A stretch of 64,000 bases of DNA from an uncultured Patescibacteria group bacterium (GCA_905478415.1 CAJQIG010000001.1:245892-309891), one strand, 5' to 3'; counted from the stretch's first letter, positions 9,456 to 60,650 are shown. Translations and numbers: made by a program. The notes: generated from the sequence alone by a model not told the origin.

Positions 9456-9527
9456 GGCCCCATCGTCTAGTGGTTAGGACATCAGGTTCTCATCCTGGTA
9501 ACCGCAGTTCGATTCTGCGTGGGGTCA
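9456..9527 (+). tRNA. tRNA-Glu (anticodon CUC), 72 nt plus a genomically encoded CC
   Basis: Hand-folded cloverleaf: acceptor GGCCCCA/TGGGGTC (one G-U pair); D-stem GTCT/GGAC; anticodon stem TCAGG/CCTGG with loop TTCTCAT (U33, anticodon CTC, A37); T-stem CGCAG/CTGCG with T-loop TTCGATT; discriminator A. Confidence 0.85.
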
Positions 9528-11047
9528 CCTAAAGCGACACCCTGTGTATTAAAGTTGAATATTGACTTATACATAGGGTTTATTTCAGGGTTCAATGTAC
9601 CGTTAAAGTCATACGTGATTCCATTTGGGAAGATTGAACCAATTAGGGCCTTTATCTGAGGCACTGTAGATCTTTTATAGGTAGCTCCTAAATCACCCAA
9701 TGTCTCTTTTATAAAATCTGAGAGCTTGTGAATGTCATATTTTTCAAGTGTTGAGTTTGATTTAGCAACGTGTGCCTTTTGAAGGTTCTTTTCAATCAAG
9801 GCGTTTTGCTCCATAAATATTTCATCCGTATAAACTCCCATCATATTTTTTTGTACGAGAACTTTTCTCATATCCTTAAGCCTTTCTATTTCACTATCTG
9901 CTACATTTTTAGCCTTCTTAAAATTTTTTAGTCGTTTCTCATATTCTTCAACTACATATTGTGAAAACAACTCTATACATTCTTTACTTGGAGATATTGT
10001 TTGTAATAATCTAACTACTTCTTCATCGAGTTTTTCTGCTCTAATTGATGCTGTATGGCACTTAGAGGAACATCGGTAGTATGGATAATCCTTACTTCTA
10101 CCTTTACTCCAACCAGCAGTTATTCCTTTTCCACATTCTGCACATTTAATAATTCTCCTTAAAGGAAAAACTTTATTATTTCGAACTCTTTTAATATTAA
10201 CTACAGGTTTGTTTACACATCTACCATCTAAAGCGTTCTGAACTTTGTAAAACTGCTCTAATGAAATCATTGGTCTGTGTTGCCCTTGAACTTCTTCTTT
10301 GTAAGTAGCTGAAGTTAAAACCCCTGCATAAAATTTATTTCTAAGCATTCTCTGAACTGTTGGAACTTTTAACTTTATTTCCTTGCCTTTATATATTGTA
10401 TGTAAACCCATCTCATTCATTATTTTTGTAATTTCAATAAGACTTGTATTTCCAATTGCCATCAAGTCCCACGCATGAATCATCTTGTCCCAACTTTCAG
10501 GATCTTCTATAGGAAATTTATTAGCATCCATTTTGTAACCAAGTGGAGGCTTTCTTGTAATTAAGCCTGATTTAAACCGAGCATACATACCATTTCTAGT
10601 TCTCTCACTACGTACGTCATTATCATGCTGGGCAAAACTTGCCATGATAGTTTCAAGCAAAGTATCAGTGGGAGACGTTCCAGTAGGCTCTGAGGCTGAA
10701 AGAAGCTTAATATCATAACTAATTAGGCTCTTACGTATTGATAGATAATCAGAAGTTTGGCGAGATAATCGATCAAGCCGATAAATGATTACTGACCCGA
10801 GTGTCCTTTTGTTTTTTTTACAATATTGAAGTAATTCAACTAAGACAGGTCTACCTGTAATTGTTTTAGCTGATTTACCTTCTTCTCTAAAGACTTTTAC
10901 AACACGATAGCCTTTTCTTATTGCCTCTTTTCGACATAAGTCTTCTTGAGTATCAAGTGAAAAATTATCTACCTGTTCTTCAGTGGAAACACGAAGATAA
11001 ATAATTGCATCTGTTTTAGTATTGTTGTCTTGATTTTTTCTAGTCAT
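9482..11047 (-). CDS. Large serine recombinase (integrase of the TnpX/TndX/phiC31 class)
   Basis: N-terminal resolvase catalytic domain (IYLRVSTEEQ, catalytic Ser, DRLSRQ), a recombinase domain, and a zinc ribbon CAECG...YRCSSKCH with a coiled-coil tail. The last roughly 15 codons overlap the tRNA-Glu 3' half (GDPTQNRTAVT is the reverse complement of the T-arm/acceptor). Confidence 0.9.
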   Translation of the reverse strand: MTRKNQDNNTKTDAIIYLRVSTEEQVDNFSLDTQEDLCRKEAIRKGYRVVKVFREEGKSAKTITGRPVLVELLQYCKKNKRTLGSVIIYRLDRLSRQTSDYLSIRKSLISYDIKLLSASEPTGTSPTDTLLETIMASFAQHDNDVRSERTRNGMYARFKSGLITRKPPLGYKMDANKFPIEDPESWDKMIHAWDLMAIGNTSLIEITKIMNEMGLHTIYKGKEIKLKVPTVQRMLRNKFYAGVLTSATYKEEVQGQHRPMISLEQFYKVQNALDGRCVNKPVVNIKRVRNNKVFPLRRIIKCAECGKGITAGWSKGRSKDYPYYRCSSKCHTASIRAEKLDEEVVRLLQTISPSKECIELFSQYVVEEYEKRLKNFKKAKNVADSEIERLKDMRKVLVQKNMMGVYTDEIFMEQNALIEKNLQKAHVAKSNSTLEKYDIHKLSDFIKETLGDLGATYKRSTVPQIKALIGSIFPNGITYDFNGTLNPEINPMYKSIFNFNTQGVALGDPTQNRTAVTRMRT

Positions 11048-23640: not shown

Positions 23641-23844
23641 CTACTCTTTTTGTTTGGGCGGACACTTACTATCTGCATACGAACAAAATACACAACAATC
23701 TCCTTGTTTTGGCTTGAGTATCTCCCCACAATGGATACATTTATAAAAATGTTGACAAGCATCAGTGGGCATACTAACTTCTTGAGATTTATTACAAAAA
23801 GGGCACTTCAGATTGGTTTTTATTTTTGTGTTTCTTCTAAGCAT
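23641..23844 (-). CDS. Cysteine-rich small protein (67 aa; four CxxC-type pairs), a zinc-ribbon-like metal-binding protein
   Basis: CPFC...CIHC...CCVFC...KCPP. Sits between the arsR-ATPase unit and the MCO gene. Confidence 0.5.
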   Translation of the reverse strand: MLRRNTKIKTNLKCPFCNKSQEVSMPTDACQHFYKCIHCGEILKPKQGDCCVFCSYADSKCPPKQKE

Positions 23845-23862: not shown

Positions 23863-25296
23863 TTACTTTTCTACTATAACAACCGTTAACATACCTGCTT
23901 CAGCATGCTCTAAAATATGACAGTGACTAACCCAAGTCCCTTCATCCAAGGGGACTACTCCTATATCAATAACCTCCTTCGATTTAATCAAAACAGTATC
24001 CCTCAAATATGGTTCATCTACTGGTTGACCATTTCTTGCAAGAACTTTAAAGAATTGTCCATGTAAATGCATAGGATGCAGCCTTGAAGAAACATTTGTA
24101 AAACGTATCACATTAAATTTACCTTTTTTAAGGGTAATTGGGTCGTAATCTGGATATGCCTTACCATTTATTGTCCATTCAATACCATATTTTCCACCTC
24201 TTCTAGCATCTAAAACATACTCGTGATCAATTTTTAGTGCATTAGTAGTACTACTCCAATCTGGGAACATAGCAGCTACAGGAATATTAAAGGACTTTAC
24301 TTCATTACTAACAGCTCCATCTACTAAAATATTAACTAGGTTATTAGTTTCTCTAGTAAAGGTATCACGAATACGATAGGTTTTTTTTTGAGATACTTGA
24401 GGAATTCTAATATCAACATCAACTCTGTTTCCAGGGGCAATTTCAAATCCTTGTACTGCAAACGGTTCTTTTGCAAGCATACCGTCTACTGCAAAGCCTT
24501 TTATATCTAAAGCACCAAAATCAAGTTTGTAAATTCGTGCATTTGAAGTATTAACAAATCTCAACCTCAATCTTTCACCTGCTTTAGCATCAATAGTGTA
24601 ATTCGGCATACCATTAACTGTAATAATATTACCCCAACGGCCATCATGCATTAAATCTCCACCAGTATTAAAACGTGGATCAATTTGTCCACTCTGGTCG
24701 ATTCTCCAATCATCCAACACTATAATTTTATCTTGGTCATATTTAGGCTCAGTAGGGTCTTCTACAACAATAGTTCCATACAAGCCTCTTTCTACCTGCT
24801 CACTCCCTCTAACATGAGGATGGTACCAAAAAGTACCAGCATCTTTAGGAGCAAACTCATAGACAAAACTTTCGCCTGGCTTAATAGGCTCTTGAGTTAC
24901 ACCGGGTACTCCATCCATTGCATTAGGAACCCTTATTCCGTGAAAATGTATTGTCGTCTCTTGTGGCAGATTATTTGTGAAGTTAATTTTAAGAGTATCT
25001 CCTTTTTCAACACGAAGTTCAGGTCCAGGCACTTGCCCATTATAAGTCCACACATCAAGATCATCACCTTCAAAAAAGTTTAATTTTCCTATCTCGGCAG
25101 ATAAAGTAAACTCTTTAACTACCCCTGTAGTTTCAATATCTTCTGGGTATGCTGCCCCAAAGTTTGGCAAATATCCTCCATTTATATTCTGATTAATGAC
25201 TTTTATTACAGTAAAAGATAGTAAAAATAAAGCAATTATCAAAAAACTGTATTTGAAAAATACTTTTATTGAATGTTTTTGACTGCTACCTATCAT
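23863..25296 (-). CDS. Multicopper oxidase (CueO/CopA/laccase family), copy 1
   Basis: All four MCO copper motifs are present: HFHG, YHPH, HPMHLHG and HCHILEHAEAGM. N-terminal signal/TM. Roughly 75% identical to the paralogue at 45705-47132 (estimated by eye). Confidence 0.9.
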   Translation of the reverse strand: MIGSSQKHSIKVFFKYSFLIIALFLLSFTVIKVINQNINGGYLPNFGAAYPEDIETTGVVKEFTLSAEIGKLNFFEGDDLDVWTYNGQVPGPELRVEKGDTLKINFTNNLPQETTIHFHGIRVPNAMDGVPGVTQEPIKPGESFVYEFAPKDAGTFWYHPHVRGSEQVERGLYGTIVVEDPTEPKYDQDKIIVLDDWRIDQSGQIDPRFNTGGDLMHDGRWGNIITVNGMPNYTIDAKAGERLRLRFVNTSNARIYKLDFGALDIKGFAVDGMLAKEPFAVQGFEIAPGNRVDVDIRIPQVSQKKTYRIRDTFTRETNNLVNILVDGAVSNEVKSFNIPVAAMFPDWSSTTNALKIDHEYVLDARRGGKYGIEWTINGKAYPDYDPITLKKGKFNVIRFTNVSSRLHPMHLHGQFFKVLARNGQPVDEPYLRDTVLIKSKEVIDIGVVPLDEGTWVSHCHILEHAEAGMLTVVIVEK

Positions 25297-25311
25297 TAAT
25301 TTTTACCCATC

Positions 25312-25743
25312 TTATTTTTCAAGTTCCTCTTTTAATAATTTCAGTTCTTTAGTGGTATTATTCAATGCTCTTAATAGTTTACTTTCAACTTCTATGGCAA
25401 TTTTGGAAATTTCTAAATTGCTTGAAAGAGTTAAAGCAGCAGTCGGCTTCATCATACTAATAAAAGTGCTTCCATTTTCTTCGTACAAAATTACATTACA
25501 CGGAAGTAGTAACCCTATCTCTTTTTCAGCTTGTAGTGCTTTATAAGCATTTGGAGGATTACATGCTCCTAGTATCATATACTTAGAATAATCAATATTT
25601 AGCTTTCTTTTCAGTGTTTCTTGAACATCAATTTGAGTAAGAATCCCAAAACCTTCTTGATTTAATGAATCAACTATTGATGCCAAAGCGCTAGAAAAAT
25701 CACCTTGGTATTTTTTTGTTATGTAATATGTTGCTTTTTTCAT
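25312..25743 (-). CDS. DUF302-domain protein (metal-resistance-associated), copy 1
   Basis: EGFGILTQIDVQETLKRKLN...MILGACNPPNAYKAL. Paralogue of 50437-50835. Confidence 0.6.
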   Translation of the reverse strand: MKKATYYITKKYQGDFSSALASIVDSLNQEGFGILTQIDVQETLKRKLNIDYSKYMILGACNPPNAYKALQAEKEIGLLLPCNVILYEENGSTFISMMKPTAALTLSSNLEISKIAIEVESKLLRALNNTTKELKLLKEELEK

Positions 25744-25803
25744 ATTTTTATTATCCTTTATATTTTATATTTTTCTGAGTCATCTTCAAAATGAATTCTA
25801 CAA

Positions 25804-25929
25804 TTATCTGAATAGAAATAGTATTTTTTGACTCAAGTGTTGAAATACCTCTCTGGCTGTACAGCTTTTTTGTTGCCAAACATAACTCACTACCCCTTGT
25901 TCAAGAGGTCTCAAAGAAATTTTTTTCAT
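25804..25929 (-). pseudogene. Truncated BlaI/CopY-family repressor remnant (N-terminal 41 codons only)
   Basis: MKKISLRPLEQGVVSYVWQQKSCTAREVFQHLSQ aligns with the N-terminus of the intact BlaI-like protein at 54433-54801 (MKKVSFGPLEQEIMNSIWKKKSSTARDIFQDLSK), then diverges and stops. Confidence 0.6.
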
Positions 25930-25930
25930 A

Positions 25931-25956
25931 CCTACGAGTGTAGGATGTACACTCTC
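25931..25956. promoter_or_regulatory. Palindromic operator candidate CCTACGAGTGTAGGATGTACACTC (CCTAC/GTAGG and GAGTGTA/TACACTC dyads; TACnnnnTGTA cop-box/BlaI-box-like)
   Basis: Lies immediately 5' of the blaI-remnant ATG. The CCTACGAGTGTAGG core is identical to the one at 54803-54816 upstream of the intact blaI-like gene. Confidence 0.5.
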
Positions 25957-26134
25957 AAAAAACAAGAGTTGTATTTTCTCTCTTGCCTAGATCCAGAGTA
26001 CTGATATAATCTGATACAATTTACTACCATAAGTAAATGTTATAACAAAGGCTGCCCACTTTAAGAGGTAGCTTTTTTTGTAACAACTGATATGCCTGCC
26101 AGCAATAAGATTAACATCGTTGAAAGGGTTGTAT

Positions 26135-26467
26135 ATGAAAAAATTAGTATTCCTCCAAAGTCTAGTACTCACTTCGTTAGTAATGGCTTCACCAGTCTTT
26201 GCTCAATCTGCAGAAGTTGGTCAAATTCAATCCTTTATCCAAGAAGTTATTCAAATTATGGTTACTCTCTCGGGATTCATTGCAGCTGGTTTTATTGTTT
26301 GGGGTGGAGTTGGATACATAACTAGTTCTGGAAATCCAGAAAGCTTAGAAAAATCTAAAAAAACAATTCTCTATTCAGCCATTGGTCTTACTTTAGTCTT
26401 GAGTGCTTTTGTGATTTCAAACATGGTTAGCCAAGTTGCAACAACAGCTTTTGGTTCAGGGATGTAA
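26135..26467 (+). CDS. VirB2/TrbC-like conjugative pilin (signal peptide plus two hydrophobic helices)
   Basis: MKKLVFLQSLVLTSLVMASPVFAQS signal, then IMVTLSGFIAAGFIVWGGVGYITSSGNPESLEKSKKTILYSAIGLTLVLSAFVI. An AAAGGG SD precedes the ATG at 26135. The 26120 call uses a TTG start. Confidence 0.55.
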   Translation: MKKLVFLQSLVLTSLVMASPVFAQSAEVGQIQSFIQEVIQIMVTLSGFIAAGFIVWGGVGYITSSGNPESLEKSKKTILYSAIGLTLVLSAFVISNMVSQVATTAFGSGM

Positions 26468-36467: not shown

Positions 36468-36485
36468 CTATCTTATCATTATATA

Positions 36486-36545
36486 TAAGACGCAGCCTCT
36501 CGAGGTTTTCAAGAAATGGTTCAAACTGAGTTACCTTAGGGTCAC
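36486..36545. repeat. 60-bp direct repeat, copy A (51/60 identical to copy B at 37803-37862); upstream element of the PLD nuclease gene
   Basis: TAAGACGCAGCCTCTCGAGGTTTTCAAGAAATGGTTCAAACTGAGTTACCTTAGGGTCAC. On the minus strand it carries a -35-like TTGAAA followed 18 nt later by TTATAT(ATAAT). Confidence 0.7.
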
Positions 36546-37653: not shown

Positions 37654-37802
37654 AATACATATTCTATAGTAATAGCATGAGAAATTACTGAGAACATCAT
37701 TGCTCTAGATACTATTTACAAACCTTTTCTATCATTAAAAAAACTTAACAATTAATAATTACTTGGAAAATAAAAATTTATTTGAATTTTTTTCACAATA
37801 TC

Positions 37803-37862
37803 TAAGACGTAGCTCCTCGAGTTTTTCTAAAAATGGTTCAAGCTGAGTTGCTTTAGGGTCAC
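37803..37862. repeat. 60-bp direct repeat, copy B; upstream element of the alpha/beta-hydrolase gene
   Basis: TAAGACGTAGCTCCTCGAGTTTTTCTAAAAATGGTTCAAGCTGAGTTGCTTTAGGGTCAC. 85% identical to copy A, in the same orientation and the same position relative to the downstream gene. Confidence 0.7.
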
Positions 37863-38028: not shown

Positions 38029-38051
38029 GATTCTGCGTGGAGTCACATAAA
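38029..38051 (+). repeat. attR-side direct repeat of the tRNA-Glu 3' end (displaced or decayed copy)
   Basis: See the mobile_element entry. The one mismatch would break acceptor-stem pairing, consistent with a non-functional remnant. Confidence 0.65.
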
Positions 38052-45662: not shown

Positions 45663-45704
45663 ATCCCATATTATATCAGAACCTTATCTTAATTAGGAAA
45701 TTTA

Positions 45705-47132
45705 CTATTCAACCTTAATAACTGTCAACATACCTGCTTCAGCATGCTCTAAGACATGACAATGACTGACCCACGTGCCCTCATCGAGCGGAATCACTCC
45801 AATATCAATAACTTCTTTTGATTTTACTAAAACAGTGTCACGAAGATATGGTTCATCTACTGGTTCTCCATTTCTTGATAAAACTTTAAAAAATTGTCCA
45901 TGTAAATGCATTGGGTGTAATCTAGATGAGGCATTTGTGAAACGTATCACAGTAAACTCACCTTTTTTTAATATAATTGGGTCGTAATCTGGGTACGCTT
46001 TGCCATTAATTGTCCATTCAATGCCATATTGACCACCTCTTCTAGCATCAAGCACATACTCTTGGTTAATTTGCAAAGTATTTGTAGCATTCCAATCAGG
46101 AAATATTTGGGCTGTTGGAGTGGTAAACTCTTGAGCTTCAATAACTGTTCCATCAATTAAGATGCGAACCAAGCTATTTGTCTCTCGCGTAAAGATATCC
46201 CTGATAGAATACTGTTTTCTCTGAGATTCTAAAGGAATAGTGATATCAACATCTATTCTATTTCCGGGTGATAACTCAAATCCACTTGCAGAAAACGGTT
46301 CTTTTGAGAGCATGCCATCAACAGCAAAGCCTTTTACATCTAAACCACCAAAATCAAGTTGATACACTCTAGCATTCGATGTATTTACAAATCGCAGTCT
46401 TACTCGCTCTCCCGCCTTAGCATTCAGCGTATAGTCTGACAAACCATTAACGGTAACAATGTTCCCCCAGCGACCATCATGCATTAAGTCATGTCCAGTA
46501 TTAAAGCGTGAATCAATTTGGCCAGTTTGATCAATTCTCCAATCGTCAAGGATGACAACTTTGTCTTGATCATAGGTTGGTTCCTCAGGATCTTCTACAA
46601 CAATGGTTCCATATAACCCTCGTTCCACTTGTTCGCTTCCTCTAACATGTGGGTGGTACCAAAAAGTACCAGCATCTTTAGGAACAAATTCATAAATAAA
46701 TTTTTCACCTGGCTTTATCGGCTCTTGAGTTACTCCAGGAACACCATCCATAGCATTAGGGACTCTGATACCATGAAAATGAATTGTTGTTTCTTGAGGA
46801 AGGTTATTTTCAAAGTTAATTTTAAGCGTATCACCTTTTGAAACTCTGATTTCGGGACCTGGAACTTGTCCATTGTATGTCCAGACATCAATTGGGTTGC
46901 TCGCAAATAAATCTAGCGTTGCTTTTTTAGCAACCAAAGTAAATTCTTTGGTCACTCCGTTAGGTTCAATATCTTCTAGGTATGCGTTTTCATATATAGA
47001 AGAAGAGTTGGTCTGCAGATTTTTTTTCAGATATTTGGTTATAAAAAAAGACAGGAGCAATAAAAAAAAGAGTAAAAATACAAATTTTAATTGGGTACTT
47101 TTCGAATATATTGGGTTATTCTTATCTATCAT
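45705..47132 (-). CDS. Multicopper oxidase (CueO/CopA/laccase family), copy 2
   Basis: HFHG, YHPH, HPMHLHG and HCHVLEHAEAGM copper motifs. Paralogue of 23863-25296. Confidence 0.9.
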   Translation of the reverse strand: MIDKNNPIYSKSTQLKFVFLLFFLLLLSFFITKYLKKNLQTNSSSIYENAYLEDIEPNGVTKEFTLVAKKATLDLFASNPIDVWTYNGQVPGPEIRVSKGDTLKINFENNLPQETTIHFHGIRVPNAMDGVPGVTQEPIKPGEKFIYEFVPKDAGTFWYHPHVRGSEQVERGLYGTIVVEDPEEPTYDQDKVVILDDWRIDQTGQIDSRFNTGHDLMHDGRWGNIVTVNGLSDYTLNAKAGERVRLRFVNTSNARVYQLDFGGLDVKGFAVDGMLSKEPFSASGFELSPGNRIDVDITIPLESQRKQYSIRDIFTRETNSLVRILIDGTVIEAQEFTTPTAQIFPDWNATNTLQINQEYVLDARRGGQYGIEWTINGKAYPDYDPIILKKGEFTVIRFTNASSRLHPMHLHGQFFKVLSRNGEPVDEPYLRDTVLVKSKEVIDIGVIPLDEGTWVSHCHVLEHAEAGMLTVIKVE

Positions 47133-47147
47133 TACTATCTAGATTTG

Positions 47148-47636
47148 CTATTTTTCAAGTTGTTCTTTAAAAAACTTTAGTTCTTTATAGGTGTGGTTAT
47201 ATACAGCTTTTTCACCTTTAAATACACTCACAAAAAACCAGTGGATCACCTTACCAAAAACTGAGTCTGGAAAATCCATAAAAACATTATGATTTAAGTG
47301 TGTGCCATCTTCTTTTTCTTCGAGTGTGAGCAAACCACCTTCTGGAATTCTTATCTTAAAAAATAAAATTGGATATACAGCAACACCTGTCCATACCAAT
47401 ACTTTAGGACGATCTGCATACATTATTTGACCCTTTAAATCTGCATAAAAATTTGCGACTGTCTCTTTCTGATGAAACGTCACTTCGGTGTGCGGTCTAT
47501 TGTCTCTACTATTAAAAACCAAGCCCAAGTGCTCCTCTGGATTTGAAGCAGTCCAGTTCACAGGATCATGTGCATAATCCCAAATTTTTTCTGGTGAATT
47601 TTTAATGGTTATGTTGGTATTTTGTTTTAATAACAT
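47148..47636 (-). CDS. SRPBCC (START/Bet v1-like) superfamily protein
   Basis: Length and pattern KIWDYAHDPVNW...TFHQKETVANFYADLKG are typical of polyketide-cyclase/AHSA1-like folds. Low specificity. Confidence 0.4.
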   Translation of the reverse strand: MLLKQNTNITIKNSPEKIWDYAHDPVNWTASNPEEHLGLVFNSRDNRPHTEVTFHQKETVANFYADLKGQIMYADRPKVLVWTGVAVYPILFFKIRIPEGGLLTLEEKEDGTHLNHNVFMDFPDSVFGKVIHWFFVSVFKGEKAVYNHTYKELKFFKEQLEK

Positions 47637-47642
47637 AGTAAT

Positions 47643-49793
47643 TTAGAGTTTTAGCTCAACCTTTCTAAGTGTCATTGCATTAATAACTACTACCACGCTT
47701 GAGAGACTCATAAGCAACGCTCCCACAGCAGGACTGAGGCGAAACCCAAAAGGAATAAATAGTCCTGCAGCCGCGGGAATAGCAACTAGATTATATCCAA
47801 GAGCCCACCAAAGATTTTGCAACATCTTTGAGTATACTTTTCTTGATAAGAGTATGAGTCTCACAAGGTGTTGTGGATTACTTTGAGTAAGAATAATATC
47901 TCCGGCTTCAACCGCTACATCCGTACCTGCTCCAATAGCAACTCCCACGTCTGCCTGTGTTAAAGCTGGGGCATCATTGACACCATCTCCAGCCATAATG
48001 ACCACATTGCCTTGCTCCTGAAGTTGCTTAATATGCTTATATTTGTCTTCTGGCAGTACTTCTGCAAATACTAGATCTATTTCCAGTTCTTTTGCAACTG
48101 GCTGGGCAGCTGACTTAATATCACCTGTTAACATTGCAACTTTCACTCCAAGTTTATGTAGTTCTTGCACTGCTTGTTTTGATTCTTCTTTGATTTCATC
48201 ACTGAGTGCAATTACTCCCAATATTTCAGAATCACTAGAAATGAAAACAGGAGTTTTACCTTTACTCGCCAATTGATCTAGAGCTTCTTGAGATGTTTTA
48301 GTCCAAACTTTTCTTTCTTCCATTAATCGCTGGTTTCCTAAAAAGTATTCTTTCTTTTCAAAATATCCTTGCATACCTCTGCCTGCTAGATTTTTAACCT
48401 TAGTTGCTTCACTGAAAGTAATCTTTTTCTCTTGTAAGTAATCAAGAATAGACAAACCAATGACATGAGAAGAGTGTGATTCTATAGCTCCAGCAACTTT
48501 GAGTAGTTGGTCTTCTTCTCCAGAAATCACTACCACGTCAGTTACGCCGAACTCTCCTTTTGTCAACGTTCCCGTTTTATCAAAAACTACGTAATCAGTG
48601 CTTTTTACAATCTCAATTTTTCCCATATCTTTAATAAATACTCCATTTTTGACAGCTAGCCTGGTTGCAATAGTTGAAACAGTCGGTATAGCCAAACCCA
48701 AAGCATGAGGACAAGCAATCACTAATACGGTAATTGCTAGTGTTGCAGAAAAAACTAAGGGTTGTCCAATTACTACTGACCAAATAAATAACGATGAAAA
48801 CGATACAGCTATAGCAAAAAATGTAAGCCATTTCGAGGCCTTATCAGCTAATTTTTGAGCAGAAGGTTTTGTCTGCTTAGCTTGAGAAATAAGGCTTTGA
48901 ATTTGACCGATGGTAGATGAATCTCCAACACGTAATAATTTAATTTCAACAGAACCATCAATACTAATTGCCCCAGCTACAACTTCTGAGCCCACATCTT
49001 TCTTAACTGGCTTTGACTCTCCTGTAATATGTGATTCATTAAAACTTCCACTACCTTTAATAATTTCTCCATCAGCTGGAGCTTTTTCCCCTGGTTTAAC
49101 AATAACAATGTCGCCTTCTTTCAGTCTTGAAATCTCAACCTCTGTTACACCTGACTCCGTTTTAAGATGTGCTTCCTTTGGAAGTAATTTTGCTACTTCT
49201 TGCAGTGCATCTCCAGCTGCTGTAGATGATTTTGCTTCTAAAAAATGTCCAAAAAGCAGCACCCAAATAAGAGTAGCTATTTCTAAATAAAATTCAACTT
49301 GAAGAGCCGGTATAAAGGTGGATAGTGCTGAAAATATGTATCCAGAACCAACTCCAAGCGAAACCAGCGTCATCATGCCATATTGTCTTGCCATAATTTC
49401 ATGGCGTGCATGGTCAAAAAAAACCAAGCCAAAATAAAAGATTATAGAAGCAATGCCAAACTCAAGTAATGACCTCAAAGCAAAGTCTGGGACACCTAAA
49501 AATTTTACAGCTGGCTCAGAAAAGATAGCTAGAGGAACCAGGAGAACGGTAACAATATAAAATCTTCTTAAAAATTCATGAGCTGCTTCTGGAGTTGCCA
49601 TCATGCTAGCGTGATCATGTTTGTCATGTCCACCACCCATCTCACTTTTTTTAACTAATTCCATACCACACTTGGAACATTCCCCAGGATGGTCCTGGTG
49701 TATTTCTGGGTGCATGGGACAGGTATAATAATCAGCTTGGTGGTTATGTGCTACATGTTGCATATTTTTCTTACTGTGATGTGAGTGTTTCAT
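47643..49793 (-). CDS. copB: CopB-type copper P1B-3 ATPase (TM6 CPH motif) with a His-rich N-terminus and a CPMHPE...CxxCGM heavy-metal-binding domain
   Basis: MKHSHHSKKNMQHVAHNHQ; YTCPMHPEIHQDHPGECSKCGMEL; TGES; ACPHALGLAIP; DKTGTLT; MLTGD; GDGVNDAPAL. Confidence 0.85.
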   Translation of the reverse strand: MKHSHHSKKNMQHVAHNHQADYYTCPMHPEIHQDHPGECSKCGMELVKKSEMGGGHDKHDHASMMATPEAAHEFLRRFYIVTVLLVPLAIFSEPAVKFLGVPDFALRSLLEFGIASIIFYFGLVFFDHARHEIMARQYGMMTLVSLGVGSGYIFSALSTFIPALQVEFYLEIATLIWVLLFGHFLEAKSSTAAGDALQEVAKLLPKEAHLKTESGVTEVEISRLKEGDIVIVKPGEKAPADGEIIKGSGSFNESHITGESKPVKKDVGSEVVAGAISIDGSVEIKLLRVGDSSTIGQIQSLISQAKQTKPSAQKLADKASKWLTFFAIAVSFSSLFIWSVVIGQPLVFSATLAITVLVIACPHALGLAIPTVSTIATRLAVKNGVFIKDMGKIEIVKSTDYVVFDKTGTLTKGEFGVTDVVVISGEEDQLLKVAGAIESHSSHVIGLSILDYLQEKKITFSEATKVKNLAGRGMQGYFEKKEYFLGNQRLMEERKVWTKTSQEALDQLASKGKTPVFISSDSEILGVIALSDEIKEESKQAVQELHKLGVKVAMLTGDIKSAAQPVAKELEIDLVFAEVLPEDKYKHIKQLQEQGNVVIMAGDGVNDAPALTQADVGVAIGAGTDVAVEAGDIILTQSNPQHLVRLILLSRKVYSKMLQNLWWALGYNLVAIPAAAGLFIPFGFRLSPAVGALLMSLSSVVVVINAMTLRKVELKL

Positions 49794-49841
49794 ACCTTCA
49801 TTATGACGATACTACTGATTGCTGTCATCACCAATGTTTTG

Positions 49842-50423
49842 TTATTTATTGCTTGCTTTTTTTATAAAAAAATATATTCCTGATAATAAAAATGAAATAA
49901 ATGCAAACCAGGTTAATCCTGATTGAATTCCAAACAAATTACCACCCCAACCCATCATTGACATGTCCCTTGGGTAAAAATTATTTGATTCATTATCTCT
50001 GAGTCCCATCATGGAGCCCCCCGTCATCATTCCTTGTGAATAACTGGTTCCACAACCCAAGTACCTACTTCCCATACGTATATGTACTTGTCTTAATGAT
50101 TCTGACCCTTCGCCACCCATCATTCGATCCATAACTTCATGAGCCTCTCCAGGGTGCTGTTGTTCCATCACCGCATCTCCAAGTTGCTCTAGGTCATCTT
50201 CACTTATTTCGTCACAACTTACCTCTTGAATAGTAGTACTACCTTGCTTCTCGAGTATTGCTTGTAAGACAGTTTCAATGGACTCTCCATGTTGAGTTGT
50301 TTCTGTATCACTGCTTTCAACTTCATTTAAACCCATCATTCCCCCTTGAGCTTGAGCTATTTTAGTATGAAAAAACAACAGATTCAAAAAAAGAAAAAAA
50401 ACTACAAATAGAAAACGTTTCAT
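49842..50423 (-). CDS. Methionine-rich secreted or membrane-anchored protein (putative Cu(I)-binding; MMG/MxxM clusters)
   Basis: Signal peptide, then MMGLNEV..MDRMMGGEG..SQGMMTGGSMMGLRD..DMSMMGWGG, and a C-terminal TM. Met-rich motifs as in CopB/PcoB/CusF-type copper binders. Confidence 0.55.
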   Translation of the reverse strand: MKRFLFVVFFLFLNLLFFHTKIAQAQGGMMGLNEVESSDTETTQHGESIETVLQAILEKQGSTTIQEVSCDEISEDDLEQLGDAVMEQQHPGEAHEVMDRMMGGEGSESLRQVHIRMGSRYLGCGTSYSQGMMTGGSMMGLRDNESNNFYPRDMSMMGWGGNLFGIQSGLTWFAFISFLLSGIYFFIKKASNK

Positions 50424-50436
50424 ATCAACCCTCCTG

Positions 50437-50835
50437 TTACTTTGTAGCAGTATTCAAGGCACTTATCAGTTTACTCTCCACATCTTCAGCAATCACAGCA
50501 ACATCCGGATTACTTGATAATGTCAGAGCAACAGAAGGCTTCATTACACTTATAAAAACACGAGTATCTTCTTCATAGACAATTACATTACAAGGAAGAA
50601 GAAGCCCTATCTCTCTTTCAGCTTGCAATGCCTTATATGCATTTGGTGGGTTACATGCACCAAGTATCATGTATTTTGAATAATGAGTATTTAATTTTCT
50701 TTTAAGTGTTTCTTGAACATCAATCTGAGTCAAAATCCCAAAACCTTCTCTATTCAAAGAATCAATTATATCTAACACAGCATCTGAGAACTTTCCTTCA
50801 TACTGTTTTGTGACTGCATATTTTACTGTATTCAT
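50437..50835 (-). CDS. DUF302-domain protein, copy 2
   Basis: Roughly 80% identical to 25312-25743 (estimated by eye). Confidence 0.6.
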   Translation of the reverse strand: MNTVKYAVTKQYEGKFSDAVLDIIDSLNREGFGILTQIDVQETLKRKLNTHYSKYMILGACNPPNAYKALQAEREIGLLLPCNVIVYEEDTRVFISVMKPSVALTLSSNPDVAVIAEDVESKLISALNTATK

Positions 50836-50838
50836 ACG

Positions 50839-51093
50839 TTACCCTCCAATATATTTCTCTGGATCATCTCTAAAATGAGTTTTGCAGTGATCAGAACAAA
50901 AAAAATATGTCGTATCTTTGTATTGCAGACTATATCTGGATTTTTGAGATACATCCATCCCACATACTAAGTCAATGTCACCAACACTGGGCTCAATATG
51001 CATTCCCAGTTTAGACAATTCTTTATCAGTTACTGTTACCATAAGAACTTCCTTAAAATACTTTTTATTGACTTGCTTCTTACATACTAACAA
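50839..51093 (-). CDS. YHS/TRASH-domain metal-binding protein (84 aa)
   Basis: VCGMDVSQKSRYSLQYKDTTYFFCSDHCKTHF: a CGM...FCS..C YHS domain. Confidence 0.7.
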   Translation of the reverse strand: MLVCKKQVNKKYFKEVLMVTVTDKELSKLGMHIEPSVGDIDLVCGMDVSQKSRYSLQYKDTTYFFCSDHCKTHFRDDPEKYIGG

Positions 51094-52600: not shown

Positions 52601-53464
52601 TTATAAATATTTTTCGATCGCTTGCTTCACCTGTTCATAAGGTAAGGCTCCTGGAATTAGCTCTTGAACTCCATCATCTGTGACGATAAATGTCCCCGGA
52701 GTTCCTGTGACTCCTGCTGCGCTGCCAGTTGTAAACTGATCTTGGACTCTTTGTGCCATTTCATCACTATCTAAACAGTTCTGAACTGCGGCTTGATCTG
52801 CACCAGCTTCAGCTCCCAGTGCTGCTAAGTCTGATAATGGAAATCCTGTTCCATTTGAACTTGTCCTTTCAAAGTAAAGATCTCCGAACTTCCAAAAGGC
52901 ATCATTACCGGCCAAACTTCCAACACACTCAGCTGCCTCAGCTGCCTTTTGGGCGTTAGCATGAAAATTCAACGGATAATGCCTATAAACCCATGCTATC
53001 TCATCTCCATATTCCTCCAGGATTTGTTGCATTGTTGGGTGAAAACGCTGACAAAATGGACACTCAAAATCTGAGTACTCTACAAGAGTAATCTTTGGAT
53101 TCTTTGCCCCTCTTTTATACTCATTAGCCTCAACAGGTGGTAAATCCCCCAGTTGAGCATCTGTTGGCCCAGAAGGGGCATTAGGCACAGTTGGAGGTTG
53201 TGCAACACCCACTGGACCAGTATTACTGGCACCCTTATTTGACCCATTGGCTAACATTTGATTTTCGGTCCACAATGAACCAATAAAAAAACCACCAATA
53301 GAAAATAAACCAATAATAATGAATAAAACAAAATTACTGTTTATAAAACCCAAAAATGATTGTAAAGAATACGACTGCGATCCTTGCATATGTAACTTCC
53401 TATACTGAATATAACTAATACCTCCTACAACTGTAGGAGGTATTGACAATAATGTCAATTGCAA
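52601..53464 (-). CDS. Membrane-anchored DsbA-like thioredoxin-fold oxidoreductase
   Basis: EYSDFECPFCQRFHP (CxxC) and the cis-Pro region GTPGTFIV. TM anchor, then a Pro/Gly-rich linker. Confidence 0.75.
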   Translation of the reverse strand: MQLTLLSIPPTVVGGISYIQYRKLHMQGSQSYSLQSFLGFINSNFVLFIIIGLFSIGGFFIGSLWTENQMLANGSNKGASNTGPVGVAQPPTVPNAPSGPTDAQLGDLPPVEANEYKRGAKNPKITLVEYSDFECPFCQRFHPTMQQILEEYGDEIAWVYRHYPLNFHANAQKAAEAAECVGSLAGNDAFWKFGDLYFERTSSNGTGFPLSDLAALGAEAGADQAAVQNCLDSDEMAQRVQDQFTTGSAAGVTGTPGTFIVTDDGVQELIPGALPYEQVKQAIEKYL

Positions 53465-53467
53465 TTG

Positions 53468-54436
53468 TTATTCTCGAGGAGAAAAAAGTATGGCAGGAGA
53501 AAAATTAATCTTATCTGATTCATAATGGCTCACACAGTCATTTGTCTGACATTCCCTACTATCACTACAAACTAAGTCGCGAAGATCTGCATTTATTCTT
53601 GAAGGATTAAAAACAAACAATAGAAACATACTAGTAACCGTCACTACACTTACTGTCATTTTCTTCAAATCAATTTTATTTGAGTCAATGCTCCCAGAAA
53701 CTAAGTATTCTATCCTTTGAGTAATTGGTGGTGTAGCAAACTGAAGAGCAACCCCATCTTCAAACGTAAGGCTTAATGCTAAAGATGAGCATAGATGGCT
53801 CTTAGTTCTTTGAGTTTCTATTACAAAAGCATCAGCGGCCAACTCAAATTCCAGTATTAGTTTTTGAACTAATACTTCTATTACTGGAACAAAAAAAAGG
53901 AGTGAACTAATTAACTTTGAGAATAACAATAACCACATGTGGAAATGTCTAACATGATAGGACTCATGGAGTACAACCGCCTCAAGTTGCTTAAAAGAAA
54001 ATGTATCTATCATACGGTTAGATACAATAATTTTTGGCTTAAAAAAACCAATGGTATATGCTGTTGAATCAACTGAATCAATAATTGAAAAAGAAATATA
54101 CTCCAAATCATGCTTTCTAATAATTGAGTTTAATTTTTGAGAAATTGATTTTGATTTCAAGTGAGATCCAAGCTTTCTGTAAGAGAACAGAAAGACTACT
54201 AAACGCCTCAGCATTAAAAGTAAACCCAAAATACCAGTTGCTAAAACAAGCAATGATAAAAGAGTGTAAAAATTAAAATGAACATGTTCCTGAAGATCAC
54301 TCAAAACATTAGTACACACTGTGATTAGAGAGTTCGCTATAAATTGGATGTTAATTTCTAATAAAGTAAATCCTAAAACAAGTATGCTCGCTGATATAAA
54401 AAATATGCTCAGTGGGGTTACTACTCTAAAATTCAT
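53468..54436 (-). CDS. BlaR1/MecR1-like M56 zinc metalloprotease (signal transducer) lacking the penicillin-binding sensor domain; Cys-rich C-terminal tail
   Basis: Four N-terminal TM helices, an HEXXH site (LHESYHVRHFHMW), and C-terminal CSDSRECQTNDC. The start overlaps the blaI-like stop by 4 nt. Confidence 0.7.
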   Translation of the reverse strand: MNFRVVTPLSIFFISASILVLGFTLLEINIQFIANSLITVCTNVLSDLQEHVHFNFYTLLSLLVLATGILGLLLMLRRLVVFLFSYRKLGSHLKSKSISQKLNSIIRKHDLEYISFSIIDSVDSTAYTIGFFKPKIIVSNRMIDTFSFKQLEAVVLHESYHVRHFHMWLLLFSKLISSLLFFVPVIEVLVQKLILEFELAADAFVIETQRTKSHLCSSLALSLTFEDGVALQFATPPITQRIEYLVSGSIDSNKIDLKKMTVSVVTVTSMFLLFVFNPSRINADLRDLVCSDSRECQTNDCVSHYESDKINFSPAILFSPRE

Positions 54437-54801
54437 TTTTTTTGAAGTGTGTCTATCATCTTTTTTCTCGTTTCTTCAGATAATTCATCGATACCATTAA
54501 CAAATGCTAGTAAAGCCTCATCTCCAAACTGACGGACAAAATTGTCCATGCTCTGACTCACAATTTTTTGAATAACATTCTTTTTCTTATCTTTTGATGT
54601 ATACACATGTGTTTTACCTTCTAACATTCTTTCAAGCACTCCTTTATCAACAAGTCTAGTCATTACTGTTTGAACGGTATTATAGGCAATTCGTTTATTT
54701 TTACTTAAATCTTGAAAAATATCTCTAGCTGTTGAACTTTTTTTCTTCCATATAGAGTTCATTATTTCCTGTTCAAGGGGTCCAAAAGAAACTTTTTTCA
54801 T
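54433..54801 (-). CDS. BlaI/MecI/CopY-family winged-helix repressor (no CopY-type C-terminal Cys cluster)
   Basis: N-terminus MKKVSFGPLEQEIMNSIWKKKSSTARDIF...YNTVQTVMTRLVDKGVL matches BlaI. Operator-like palindrome directly 5' of the ATG. Confidence 0.8.
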   Translation of the reverse strand: MKKVSFGPLEQEIMNSIWKKKSSTARDIFQDLSKNKRIAYNTVQTVMTRLVDKGVLERMLEGKTHVYTSKDKKKNVIQKIVSQSMDNFVRQFGDEALLAFVNGIDELSEETRKKMIDTLQKK

Positions 54802-54802
54802 A

Positions 54803-54816
54803 CCTACGAGTGTAGG
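54803..54816. promoter_or_regulatory. Palindromic operator candidate CCTACGAGTGTAGG (contains TACGAGTGTA, a TACAnnTGTA-like cop/Bla box) abutting the blaI-like start
   Basis: Identical core to 25931-25944; 5-bp arms CCTAC/GTAGG. Confidence 0.5.
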
Positions 54817-54847
54817 ACATCAAACTTAAAAAAACAAGCATAGTATC

Positions 54848-55756
54848 TTAGTGATTTTCACAACAACTCTTAGAATTCGATGTGTTTTCTTTATCAGTAC
54901 TTTCACTTTTAACTTGTTTATATATATAAACAACAAATAGTAGTACAAATACAACAAATAACACATTAACAAATGGAACCTGAGCAGTTACATTTGTAAC
55001 ATTCATGGCAACTTGGTTAATTGATTTTGTAATTGATTCATCTCCTGAAGACATAGAGACCTTACCCGTAAGTGTAATTACTATCATTAGAATACCTGAT
55101 AAAAAAAACACAACTGATCCAGCCAAAGTAGAGACAGTAACGTTTCTTTGTTTGTCTAAAAATGTAAATTGGGCTAAAGATTTTCTAAATACTGGATTAC
55201 TCAAGATATTTCTTTTATTTATGAATAAAGATGCTAAATAGAGAGGAAATACCATTCCGAGCACATAACTAAAGCCTATTAATAATGAGAATAGTATTGA
55301 AGGACTAAACGAGCTGAGGGTAATTACCCCAATTAAGACTGGGGCACAACAAGATGATGTAACCCCAGAAACAACTCCTAACATAAAGGTAGATGCTATA
55401 TCTGAGCCATTTTTTCCACCGCTATTCTTTTTAGAGTTTCCAATTTTCAAATTAATCATTGAAAATTTAAAACCAATGAGGGTTAAAAATGAAGCAATAA
55501 TCATAATAAAACCACCAATGAGGTATGTTTTATCATGAAAGTCCATGAAGAACTCAGTTAAAATCTTTGCACCTAACACAATTGGCATCATCACCACAAA
55601 AATACCTAGAGAATAAATAAAAGTCATAAACAAGACTTTTTCTTTCTCTTTGAAAATATTTCCTATATATGCAGGAAATAGATAAGAAATACAACATGGA
55701 GCAAATAATGCCACCATACCTGCAACAAAGGCAGCTATTAAAGATATTTGAATCAT
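54848..55756 (-). CDS. Polytopic membrane protein with vicinal Cys pairs (TM1 FAPCCISYLFP and C-terminal SKSCCENH); DsbD/MerT-like thiol or metal transfer candidate
   Basis: Eight or more TM helices. CC in the first helix and CC in the cytoplasmic tail are reminiscent of MerT Cys pairs. Confidence 0.45.
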   Translation of the reverse strand: MIQISLIAAFVAGMVALFAPCCISYLFPAYIGNIFKEKEKVLFMTFIYSLGIFVVMMPIVLGAKILTEFFMDFHDKTYLIGGFIMIIASFLTLIGFKFSMINLKIGNSKKNSGGKNGSDIASTFMLGVVSGVTSSCCAPVLIGVITLSSFSPSILFSLLIGFSYVLGMVFPLYLASLFINKRNILSNPVFRKSLAQFTFLDKQRNVTVSTLAGSVVFFLSGILMIVITLTGKVSMSSGDESITKSINQVAMNVTNVTAQVPFVNVLFVVFVLLFVVYIYKQVKSESTDKENTSNSKSCCENH

Positions 55757-58620: not shown

Positions 58621-59301
58621 ATGAAAATACTATTAGTAGAAGATGACAAGACTCTTTCAAGTACAATTAAAGAAACTTTAGAAAGTCAAACATTTGCTGT
58701 TGATTTGGTTTCAACAATAGATGCTGCACAATTTCAAATAGAAGAGTTCACCAAAGAGTATGATTGTATCGTTCTAGATATCAATCTCCCTGATGGTAAT
58801 GGCTTTGACCTATGTAAAGACATTCGTAATAAAAAAATCACGACACCTATCATCATGATGACAGCCAGGGATACTCTTGAAGAAAAAATTAAAGGACTCA
58901 ACATCGGAGCTGATGATTACATCACTAAACCATTCTCAATTCAGGAATTAATTGCCAGAATAAAATCAATTATAAGAAGAAGTAGTAAAGAACCTTTGCC
59001 AATAATTACAGTCGGAAGACTAGAGGTTAATCCACAGACGATGAGAGTCTTAAATAATAAAAAACCAATCAATTTATCCTCTAGAGAATTTTCAGTTTTA
59101 GAAATCTTAGCAAGACATAGTGATGAAGTTGTTACCAGAAGTATGTTAATGGAACATGTCTGGGGAAGTGACTTTGAATCATTCTCAAACGTAATAGATG
59201 TCTATATAAAAAACCTAAGAAAAAAAATCGATGCTGGTCAACAAAATAAGTTACTACACACAATCAGAGGTAGCGGATATAGCTTATCTAATAAAAGATG
59301 A
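58621..59301 (+). CDS. OmpR-family response regulator (receiver plus winged-helix)
   Basis: Receiver motifs LVEDD, VLDINLPDG, MMTARD. C-terminal wHTH RLEVNPQT...SREFSVLEIL...VYIKNLRKKID. Confidence 0.85.
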   Translation: MKILLVEDDKTLSSTIKETLESQTFAVDLVSTIDAAQFQIEEFTKEYDCIVLDINLPDGNGFDLCKDIRNKKITTPIIMMTARDTLEEKIKGLNIGADDYITKPFSIQELIARIKSIIRRSSKEPLPIITVGRLEVNPQTMRVLNNKKPINLSSREFSVLEILARHSDEVVTRSMLMEHVWGSDFESFSNVIDVYIKNLRKKIDAGQQNKLLHTIRGSGYSLSNKR

Positions 59302-60650
59302 TATTTTTTAAAACACTCCGCGGGAAACTAACCATTATATTTTTTGTTTCAACAGTTACTATTACTATTCTAACTTTTTTTCTATTAATCTTTACTACTC
59401 AAAAACTAATTTTTGATCAAGTAAATCATCATCTACATATTGTCATAAACGAAGCTAAGAAAATTGTTGAAGAAAATCATGAAGTTGATAATATCGAACC
59501 ACTAAAAAACTTGGTAAGTGCTCAAGGCATGACTGTTATTTTATTATCAAGTGATGGATCTCCAATCCTACAAACAAATAGTTTTGATGTGGCAGACGTA
59601 ACAGAACATCAAATGCAACAAATTGTATTCTCAAGTACCAATAAAGAAGAACCACAACACTTTAGTGTTAATCAAATGCAGTTTGCTACTGTTCCCGTAA
59701 GTATATACGGTTATCAAGATGGAATATTAGCAGTTGGATTCTCTACAAAGATTATTAACAACACAATAAAAGAAATAACTACTATTATTATTTTTGTACT
59801 TCTACTAAGTATTACTGTCGTCAGTATAGTATGGCAAACAATCATTAAACATTATCTTTTACCTTTAGAAAAGATTTCTCAGTCTGCTTTACAAATTAAA
59901 AAATCATCTGACCTAAATAAAAAAGTTAAAACAAATACCACTACAATTGAACTCAAAAACATCACAGCATCTTTTAATAATTTACTAGAGAAATTAAAAC
60001 AAGTTTTTGAAGAGGAACATCTATTTTTTTCTGATACTGCGCATAGCTTAAAAACACCTCTAGCCGTTATTAGATCATACATTGAAACACTACCCAGACA
60101 ACAAAACAAAAAGAAAAATGAAATTCTAAATTATATAGATTCCTTAAATGAAACAATTCAAGACTTATTAATTATTTCTAAAATTAACACTAGTTATCCG
60201 AAAAACAGTAAGCAAATTAATTTTTCAGAAATAGTTAGTACGATTGCTGAACTAACTCAGACAATAGGGTTAGAAAAAAATATTACGGTTAATCAAGTTA
60301 TTGAAAAAAATATTTTTATTAATGCAGATGAACAGCTGTTAACCAAAGCTATATTAAATGTAATAAAAAATGCTGTTGATCATGAAAGTCAGAATGGCAC
60401 AATTACAATCAGTTTGAATAAAAAAAATAATATTTCGGAGCTTTTAATTAAAGACACTGGTGTAGGGATTAGTAGCAAAGATCTCAAAAGTATCTTTAAT
60501 AGATTTTACCAAAGTAAAAATTCTCAATCAAAAAAGGGTAATGGACTTGGCCTCTCTATATCCAAAGCTATTATTGAAAGATTTGAAGGAAAAATAACTA
60601 TTTCATCTAAAATTAAAAAGGGGACTTCAGTTTTCATCTTCTTTTCATAA
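59298..60650 (+). CDS. Sensor histidine kinase (two TM helices, HAMP-like, HisKA, HATPase)
   Basis: H-box FFSDTAHSLKTPLAVI. N box and G boxes NAVDHES, IKDTGVGIS, GNGLGLSI. Confidence 0.85.
   Translation: MIFFKTLRGKLTIIFFVSTVTITILTFFLLIFTTQKLIFDQVNHHLHIVINEAKKIVEENHEVDNIEPLKNLVSAQGMTVILLSSDGSPILQTNSFDVADVTEHQMQQIVFSSTNKEEPQHFSVNQMQFATVPVSIYGYQDGILAVGFSTKIINNTIKEITTIIIFVLLLSITVVSIVWQTIIKHYLLPLEKISQSALQIKKSSDLNKKVKTNTTTIELKNITASFNNLLEKLKQVFEEEHLFFSDTAHSLKTPLAVIRSYIETLPRQQNKKKNEILNYIDSLNETIQDLLIISKINTSYPKNSKQINFSEIVSTIAELTQTIGLEKNITVNQVIEKNIFINADEQLLTKAILNVIKNAVDHESQNGTITISLNKKNNISELLIKDTGVGISSKDLKSIFNRFYQSKNSQSKKGNGLGLSISKAIIERFEGKITISSKIKKGTSVFIFFS

Follow-up and report, generated by a model that had tools for sequence, protein, structure and literature searches.

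We report here that an integrative conjugative element (ICE) carrying copper genes, located within 64,000 nucleotides of DNA from an uncultured Patescibacteria group bacterium (GCA_905478415.1, CAJQIG010000001.1:245892-309891; this whole stretch is hereafter the window), has lost its own BlaI-family repressor through deletions inside its cargo and has kept the putative promoter and operator of the repressor gene. Positions 25804-25956, shown above, hold the remains of that gene, a stump left behind when part of the ICE cargo was deleted internally. An intact blaI gene, paired with a gene for a BlaR1-like M56 protease, lies 28,872 nt from the stump in a resident module outside the ICE. We consider it probable, judging from the sequence comparisons set out below, that three things together best explain these observations: an internal-deletion scar in the ICE cargo, a kept promoter-operator, and control of the remaining genes in trans by the resident BlaI.

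The stump reads on the minus strand as an open reading frame (ORF) of 41 codons, from an ATG at 25929 to a stop at 25804. Residues 1-34 of its product are identical to the resident BlaI at 18 of 34 positions (pairwise BLASTP E 5e-14; tblastn E 5e-8), and 23 of 35 residues match the BlaI of L101, one of a group of sister elements described below. At the nucleotide level, 25826-25977 aligns with 54698-54849 at 75.2% identity and 25838-25967 aligns with the L101 blaI 5' end at 85.4% (E 1.6e-36), placing the resemblance to BlaI homologues well beyond chance. The Pfam Penicillinase_R profile (PF03965) matches residues 8-35 of the stump over profile positions 3-30 of 115, with an E value of 1.3e-3 and a score of 19.5 bits that is below the 22.6 cut-off. 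The stump descends from the BlaI/MecI/CopY family and is not a complete winged-helix plus dimerisation domain. The original prediction of a 41-codon repressor stump was correct as to family but not as to extent, as protein, nucleotide and profile matches assign only ~35 of the 41 codons (25825-25929, minus strand) to blaI. The six last codons and the stop (ILFLFR*; 25804-25824, minus strand) are the remnant of a YHS gene read out of frame, aligning to the 3' end of that gene in the +1 frame. The last 21 codons and stop of the YHS gene remain at 25758-25823 (minus strand), as found by tblastn, which matched residues 63-81 of the resident YHS protein to 25823-25767 with 12 of 19 identities (E 1.4e-4), and as confirmed by nucleotide alignment to 50839-51093 and to L101 9860-10000. 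The joint between blaI and YHS falls within about 25824-25830. In L101, the two positions that correspond to the ends of the blaI-YHS deletion both carry the 8-nt sequence ATAATAAA, consistent with an event mediated by microhomology. Only the window's own population was seen to have the deleted form.

The form of the cargo before the deletions is seen in the sister elements L101-L105. These share the conjugation backbone of the window's ICE, with TrbC-like and type IV secretion system (T4SS) pilin genes on one side of the cargo and genes for a Replic_Relax protein, a 273-residue protein and an 863-residue coupling protein on the other, and they carry a whole module at the same backbone position as the trimmed cargo of the window. 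The first part of the module encodes a response regulator, a DUF1573 protein, a rhodanese/DUF1573 protein, several small proteins and a DsbD-like protein; the second part encodes BlaI, a BlaR1-like protein, DsbA, DsbD, DUF3105, YHS, DUF302, p193, a CopA-type ATPase, p136 and a multicopper oxidase (MCO). At least two further close DUF302 relatives (85-90% identity), on short contigs, keep YHS-DUF302-p193-CopA. Compared with L101, the window's ICE misses three blocks of ~4.6, ~4.0 and ~3.3 kb, two of which have joints inside genes (blaI/YHS and DUF302/p162). At the nucleotide level, the window and L101 share 92% and 90.8% identity over the two backbone arms and 82-85% over the three surviving cargo pieces, compared to 72-76% between the ICE cargo and the window's resident copy, and 68-75% between the resident module and L101. 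Since the ICE copy is nearer to the sister-ICE cargo than to the resident copy, and since an intact module occupies the same site in the sister elements, we conclude that the module came in with the ICE lineage and that the repressor was lost by deletions inside the ICE cargo. These comparisons likewise show that the ancestral cargo, judging by its gene content, was a module under a BlaI-family repressor and a BlaR1-like M56 protease. Loss of the repressor from the ICE module, which had been predicted, is borne out: blaI is cut at codon ~35, and the BlaR1-like gene is within the missing cargo. As a separate observation, the sister-ICE cargo opens with a response regulator gene and no histidine kinase gene (L101 1005-1906), whereas the resident module has both (58621-60650); the ICE cargo thus resembles one part of a larger island that the element has captured.

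The second intragenic joint is found in the DUF302 gene (25312-25743, minus strand; Pfam DUF302, 88.5 bits), which continues in frame into the 12 final codons of p162 (tail 25312-25350). The resulting protein has 143 residues, compared to 132-138 elsewhere, and its C-terminus KELKLLKEELEK matches the C-terminus KELKFFKEQLEK of the resident 162-residue protein; its closest relatives (85-90% identity, 135-138 residues) are without the p162-derived tail. In a self-blastn comparison, 23863-25977 aligned in the same order with four pieces of the resident module that lie apart from one another. In addition to the blaI piece given above, these comprise the MCO (23863-25152 against 45702-46985, 75.9% nucleotide and 74.5% protein identity), a short piece upstream of it (25287-25351 against 47123-47187), and DUF302 with ~80 nt upstream (25359-25824 against 50451-50908, 72.5% nucleotide and 72% protein identity). 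Compared with the 75-80% identity estimated originally for the two duplicated genes, the value for DUF302 is slightly lower. The ICE copy of the MCO gene (23863-25296, minus strand; Pfam Cu-oxidase_3/2/1) is 82.3% identical to that of L101 at the nucleotide level. Its nearest relatives are labelled Patescibacteria, the likely phylum of the host, and among the GTDB representatives none is closer to it than 72%, indicating that the host species is not represented there. Two differences in gene calls were observed in the sister elements: the p162 homologue (L101 13216-13680) is called at 136 residues with another C-terminus, the p162 3' end appearing frameshifted, and the MCO is called at 508 residues.

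The kept operator is a dyad of the form CCTAC-N4-GTAGG. The 14-mer CCTACGAGTGTAGG occurs at 25931-25944, before the stump, and at 54803-54816, upstream of the intact blaI, with 0 mismatches in either, so that the palindrome originally reported as common to both loci is exact. Both copies have the core TACACTCGTA, which is 1 mismatch from TACAnnTGTA, and in both the minus-strand ATG begins 1 nt beyond the end of the box. A related dyad, CCTACAACTGTAGG, is present at 53424-53437, within a second resident operator (53417-53444) that precedes a DsbA-like gene and consists of an inverted repeat with 12-bp arms around CCTACAGTTGTAGG (minus strand). The core of this site, TACAACTGTA at 53426-53435, has the exact TACAnnTGTA form. 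With up to 2 mismatches allowed, the dyad has 3 matches in the window compared to 0.05 expected, a number not attained in any of 100 shuffles. The looser pattern CTACNNNNGTAG has 4 matches in the window compared to 0.33 expected; the fourth CTAC-N4-GTAG match (25119-25130) was rejected as a coding coincidence, since it is within the ICE MCO coding sequence and the homologous codons in L101 share it. The exact TACAnnTGTA sequence alone was not enriched in the window (2 matches compared to 1.46 expected), and it is the longer CCTAC-N4-GTAGG, rather than TACAnnTGTA, that is the informative form of the box.

The box is also found in other genomes. The sequence CCTACACTTGTAGG occupies the equivalent place, 1 nt before the blaI ATG, in L101-L105 and in the L021 genome, the MCO of which shares 67% identity with the resident MCO, and blaI is preceded by ACTACAATYTGTAGT in L023 and L029. 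The exact TACAnnTGTA core is present as TACACTTGTA in L101 and L021. The ICE box and the resident blaI box are identical at 14/14 positions; the boxes of L101 and L021 differ by 1 position. A box is kept before dsbA in the window, L101 and L021. Taken together, its frequency far above chance and its conservation before orthologous blaI genes in other genomes identify the box, on sequence grounds, as a predicted BlaI/CopY-type operator dyad. A third CCTAC-N4-GTAGG box, CCTACTATTGTAGG, was noted in the sister elements between the MCO/ArsR genes and a gene for a 278-residue protein (L101 15541-15552), suggesting that the BlaI regulon may reach further in these elements. We also noted a second inverted repeat, GAGTGTA-catcc-TACACTC (25938-25956), which overlaps the left half of the ICE operator and contains TGTACA; it is confined to the ICE copy, being found neither in the resident copy nor in L101.

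The surviving piece of ~150 nt contains the complete 46-nt blaI intergenic promoter/operator. A -35-like hexamer, TTGTTT, is located at 25960-25965 and a -10-like hexamer, TACACT, at 25937-25942 (both minus strand); the latter falls inside the operator box and is separated by 7 nt from the ATG at 25929. These hexamers were recognised by consensus and by conserved geometry: TTGTTT-17-TACACT followed by 7 nt and the ATG is the layout at the ICE copy, the resident blaI and L101, and L021 has the variant TTGAAA-17-TACACT, likewise with 7 nt to the ATG. As the geometry, with a -35 element, a 17-nt spacer and a -10 element in the box, is the same across four lineages, we assigned a putative promoter to it. 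Between the ICE and L101, 3/17 positions of the spacer have changed, and both hexamers and their spacing are unchanged. No Shine-Dalgarno sequence is present at a usable distance from the blaI ATG, and the distance to the ATG suggests that the transcript would be leaderless or nearly so. We found no terminator-like site across 25250-26150. At the second resident operator, the dsbA promoter (TTGACA-17-TACAGT) was called by the promoter scan, with its -10 overlapped by the 12-bp-arm inverted repeat. This promoter and its box also occur in L101 and L021, and the dsbA site appears the clearer of the resident module's two operator-promoters.

The resident module occupies 44.6-61 kb, outside the ICE limits, and contains the intact pair at the distance of ~29 kb originally described. 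Its repressor gene (54433-54801, minus strand) encodes a 122-residue protein without cysteine, residues 7-120 of which match Penicillinase_R profile positions 2-114 of 115 (86.5 bits compared to the 22.6 cut-off). The best NCBIfam match is CopY_TcrY (TIGR02698), at 53.4 bits and hence short of the equivalog cut-off of 121.95. On the basis of this shortfall and the lack of cysteine, we conclude that the resident BlaI is not a CopY-type metal sensor. The gene overlaps by 4 nt that of a 322-residue BlaR1-like M56 metalloprotease with a Cys-rich C-terminal tail (53468-54436, minus strand; Pfam Peptidase_M56, 63.7 bits compared to a cut-off of 31). The protease is without a beta-lactam sensor domain, scoring 34 bits against the 400 of the NCBIfam blaR1_generic profile over profile positions 84-325 of 585. 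The sensor domain of BlaR1 sits after the last transmembrane segment. By analogy, we infer that the ~45-residue tail that follows the last hydrophobic segment of the BlaR1-like protein is extracytoplasmic. The motif HESYH and the residues C290, C296 and C301 are invariant in three lineages, and the tail could be a candidate metal/redox sensor in place of the penicillin-binding domain, responding to copper or disulfide stress. The tail (residues 278-322) has the pattern VC..x5..CQT..C.S.YE.D..NFS, the homologues being encoded at L101 6183-7151 and L021 11698-12669; N-terminal invariant residues are C41, H51 and H53. Resident counterparts of YHS, DUF302, p193, the CopA-type ATPase, p162 and the MCO, identified by Pfam and self-blastn, occupy 45705-51093 (minus strand), and the regulon predicted from this gene content spans thiol-redox and copper genes. 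In every long assembly, the stump and the resident blaI are on one contig.

Based on these findings, we propose the following scheme for the ICE genes. What remains of the ICE module is a putative promoter/operator, 35 blaI codons with a YHS tail out of frame, the in-frame DUF302::p162 fusion and the MCO. With the -10 hexamer TACACT inside the dyad CCTACACTCGTAGG, a bound BlaI dimer would block RNA polymerase. Transcription would start at or near the ATG and would proceed through the dead 41-codon ORF and a 60-nt spacer into DUF302-MCO; the 41-residue product would be too short for DNA binding or dimerisation, and we take it to be non-functional. The ICE promoter would be under repression in trans by the resident BlaI, which the resident BlaR1-like protease would relieve in response to a signal that is probably copper or thiol/disulfide stress, received via the Cys-rich outer tail. 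The ICE promoter would be constitutive in any recipient that had no such repressor. Repression in trans is expected because the two boxes are identical, the promoter geometry has not changed, and the lineages differ little in the presumed recognition-helix segment of BlaI (IAYNTVQTVMTRLVDKG in the resident protein, IAYNTIQTVMTRLVDKG in that of L101). We regard it as plausible, and as the most economical reading of the sequences.

Several points weigh against this scheme. The promoter scan did not call the ICE blaI promoter, whose -35 matches the consensus at 3/6 positions only, and BlaI occupancy is a prediction, as are the promoter itself and its leaderless start. A promoter-like sequence in the YHS remnant, TTGAAG-16-TAAAAT (25789-25762, minus strand), directly precedes DUF302 and could be an independent source of expression for the genes. 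The first missing block, from the response regulator to the DsbD-like gene, could be a gain in the sister lineage and not a loss here. Lastly, the decay of the stump sequence gives no date for the deletion and is no proof that function was lost, and its dN/dS does not discriminate between this scheme and a fossil operator. In that alternative, the operator is a fossil, with box and promoter spared by chance and the ICE DUF302-MCO genes expressed constitutively or from another promoter, without response to the resident BlaI. TTGAAG-16-TAAAAT would be a natural candidate for such a promoter, as the homologous resident and L101 stretches look poorer in this respect, although 9/12 matches of this kind occur at chance frequency in this AT-rich region. 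The alternative also agrees with the lack of a measurable selection signal in the stump and with the presence of ArsR-type regulators belonging to the module's other genes. Chance, however, would have had to spare the hexamers, the 17-nt spacing and the box while the spacer between them diverged from L101, to leave a 150-nt promoter piece between two missing blocks of at least 4 kb, and to leave the ICE box identical to the resident one. On balance, we consider a fossil operator unlikely.

The original prediction had explained the two copies by copying of the module between the islands, with loss of the repressor on the way. Copying within the genome, in either direction, would account for the presence of both copies in one genome, 29 kb apart, with an identical box. 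It is nevertheless at odds with the identities given above, since the copies are only 72-76% identical to each other, whereas the ICE copy is 82-85% identical to a sister-ICE cargo that is intact at the same backbone site in other hosts; we therefore regard this origin as very improbable. Still less credible is the possibility that the 41-codon ORF encodes a functional small protein, such as a BlaI-interfering fragment or a leader peptide coupling translation to DUF302. The ORF is open, has its native ATG and is invariant in 10 assemblies, and its dN/dS relative to L101 (0.31) does not look neutral and does not differ from the 0.26 for the same 35 codons between intact genes, although 35 codons are too small a sample for dN/dS to carry weight. 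On the other hand, the recognition helix, the wing and the dimerisation region are missing, residues that are invariant in intact proteins are changed (G7R, E12G and M14V), the six last codons are an out-of-frame read, and this form is found in one population only. An assembly chimera has next to no probability, since 10 independent assemblies, made from different samples and with different assemblers, agree at 100% identity over the 431 nt of the stump region, showing that the stump is not an artefact.

We tentatively extend the preferred explanation, namely a deletion scar with a kept promoter-operator under resident BlaI control, to a broader and more doubtful one, which we offer as a possibility. 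Under this extension, the element would have shed its own regulatory pair and selectively kept a minimal promoter-operator that matches that of the host, wiring its oxidase cargo into the recipient's copper/thiol sensor. The C-for-T operator variant, which occurs only in this genome's two copies and not in the nearest sisters, would have arisen as an adaptation to the resident repressor or by gene conversion towards it; the BlaR1-like protease would represent a novel kind of extracytoplasmic Cys-based metal/redox sensor; and the whole would be a working, host-hopping conjugative element in Patescibacteria.

The element itself extends over ~28.5 kb between two copies of the 3' end of tRNA-Glu(CTC). 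The tRNA gene is at 9456-9529; attL (9511-9533, plus strand) consists of its last 19 nt plus 4 nt downstream, and a candidate attR at 38029-38051 (plus strand) repeats these 23 bp at 21/23 positions (blastn-short, E 0.014). A large serine recombinase (9482-11047, minus strand; Pfam Resolvase, Recombinase and Zn_ribbon_recom) lies at the ICE end. As an aside, the 3' end of its ORF overlaps tRNA-Glu on the opposite strand by ~48 nt (9482-9529), with the stop codon inside the tRNA/attL. From the recombinase, the gene order is a TrwB/TraG-like type IV coupling protein, a Replic_Relax protein (51.9 bits compared to a cut-off of 25.3), the cargo and the T4SS genes, a monoderm-type set comprising a VirB4-like ATPase, a PrgI-like protein, TrbC/T4SS pilins and an M23 hydrolase. 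The copper module thus lies within an ICE, as had been proposed. The same element was found in other hosts: in L117, 91.5% identity extends over 6.3 kb and ends exactly at tRNA-Glu, beyond which only 280 nt align, at 71%, and L118, a third host, follows this pattern at 75-78% and at the same tRNA-Glu. The coordinates of the element are 9456-38051 in the window, 5310-11593 in L117 and 4732-11593 in L118. Horizontal transfer predicts just such a recurrence of one element at one site in hosts whose flanks have diverged, and together these features identify it, on the sequence evidence, as a genuine ICE at tRNA-Glu. No empty attachment site or ICE-free strain was found among contigs carrying the flanking MFS protein, all of which have the same context, and an Rfam search of 35-45 kb, around the candidate attR, returned no structured RNA. 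A single element spanning 9.5-61 kb was considered and rejected, as the tRNA repeat at 38029-38051 leaves the resident module outside the ICE. According to a 2025 survey, most Patescibacteria T4SS clusters are without a recognised relaxase and are probably not conjugative (PMC12102498); the window's element looks like an exception to this picture.

Other features of the ICE and its surroundings were observed in passing. Downstream of the ICE MCO, a 67-residue Cys-rich protein (23641-23844) is a GDCCVxC domain protein (NF041374, 92 bits); after its gene come ArsR-type regulators and two P-type ATPases lacking the HMBD domain, a cargo unlike that of the sister elements. An alpha/beta-hydrolase gene just inside the candidate attR is flanked by a direct repeat of 73 bp (82% identity; 36473-36545 and 37790-37862). 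The G+C content is 31-38% over 10000-61000, a tract that includes the ICE, 38-44.6 kb and the resident module, compared to 41-44% at 1-9 kb and 39-41% at 61-64 kb, and this low-G+C tract may represent several acquisitions at one hot spot. The resident module was probably also acquired, in view of the low G+C of its region and of its sharing the gene order of the sister-ICE cargo.

The arrangement has its closest analogue, and a functional precedent, in staphylococcal cassette chromosome mec (SCCmec) elements bearing truncated mecI or mecR1. In SCCmec with truncated MecI or deleted mecR1, mecA is under blaR1-blaI control (PMC3406092). As in these Staphylococcus aureus elements, the ICE keeps a BlaI/MecI-type operator, its own repressor and sensor-protease having been lost or truncated. 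In SCCmec, a homologous pair elsewhere in the cell takes over control; in the ICE, such cross-regulation is what we would predict. The two cases differ in several respects. The ICE cargo is DUF302 and a multicopper oxidase rather than a penicillin-binding protein, the window's sensor is without a beta-lactam-binding domain, the mobile unit is an ICE that is conjugative and uses a serine recombinase, and the loss occurred by microhomology-type internal deletions rather than by truncation mediated by insertion sequences.

The resident pair likewise resembles BlaI-BlaR1 and MecI-MecR1, in that a gene for a Penicillinase_R winged-helix repressor overlaps by 4 nt one for an HExxH M56 protease, and a TACA/TGTA-type dyad lies over the predicted promoter. 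In contrast to BlaR1 and MecR1, its 322-residue protease has no C-terminal sensor resembling a penicillin-binding protein and has instead a ~45-residue tail with three invariant cysteines, and its predicted regulon consists of copper and thiol-redox genes. The CopY/TcrY copper repressors of Enterococcus hirae recognise the cop box TACAnnTGTA. The resident repressor belongs to the same Pfam family, with CopY_TcrY as its best NCBIfam match; its dyad cores, TACAACTGTA before dsbA and TACACTCGTA before blaI, resemble the cop box; and the genes predicted to be under its control include a copper ATPase and a copper oxidase. Unlike CopY, it has no cysteine and hence no C-terminal CxCx4-5CxC metal site, and it is presumably released when the adjacent M56 protein brings about its proteolysis, not by direct metal binding. 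Mycobacterium tuberculosis BlaI (Rv1846c) is paired with BlaR (Rv1845c), an M56 protease without a penicillin-binding sensor, and controls genes beyond beta-lactamase; the window's pair differs in regulon and in phylum. Our literature searches returned no description of a BlaI/BlaR1-type copper circuit, nor of a copper-carrying ICE in Patescibacteria.

Taken together, these findings provide a cleanly resolved case of cargo trimming in a conjugative element, in which the intact and the deleted forms are both still present in nature, and in which three blocks are gone, two of them with intragenic joints, and the promoter-operator is kept. They predict that a mobile element may depend for its regulation on a chromosomal repressor/protease pair. 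This is the logic by which mecA comes under BlaI in methicillin-resistant S. aureus, here applying to copper and thiol-redox genes in an uncultured lineage with small genomes. They further point to a BlaI/BlaR1-type circuit that would sense through a short Cys-rich tail rather than a penicillin-binding domain, and they suggest that T4SS clusters of the Patescibacteria type include at least one with the behaviour of a real ICE, integrated at tRNA-Glu in hosts that have diverged.

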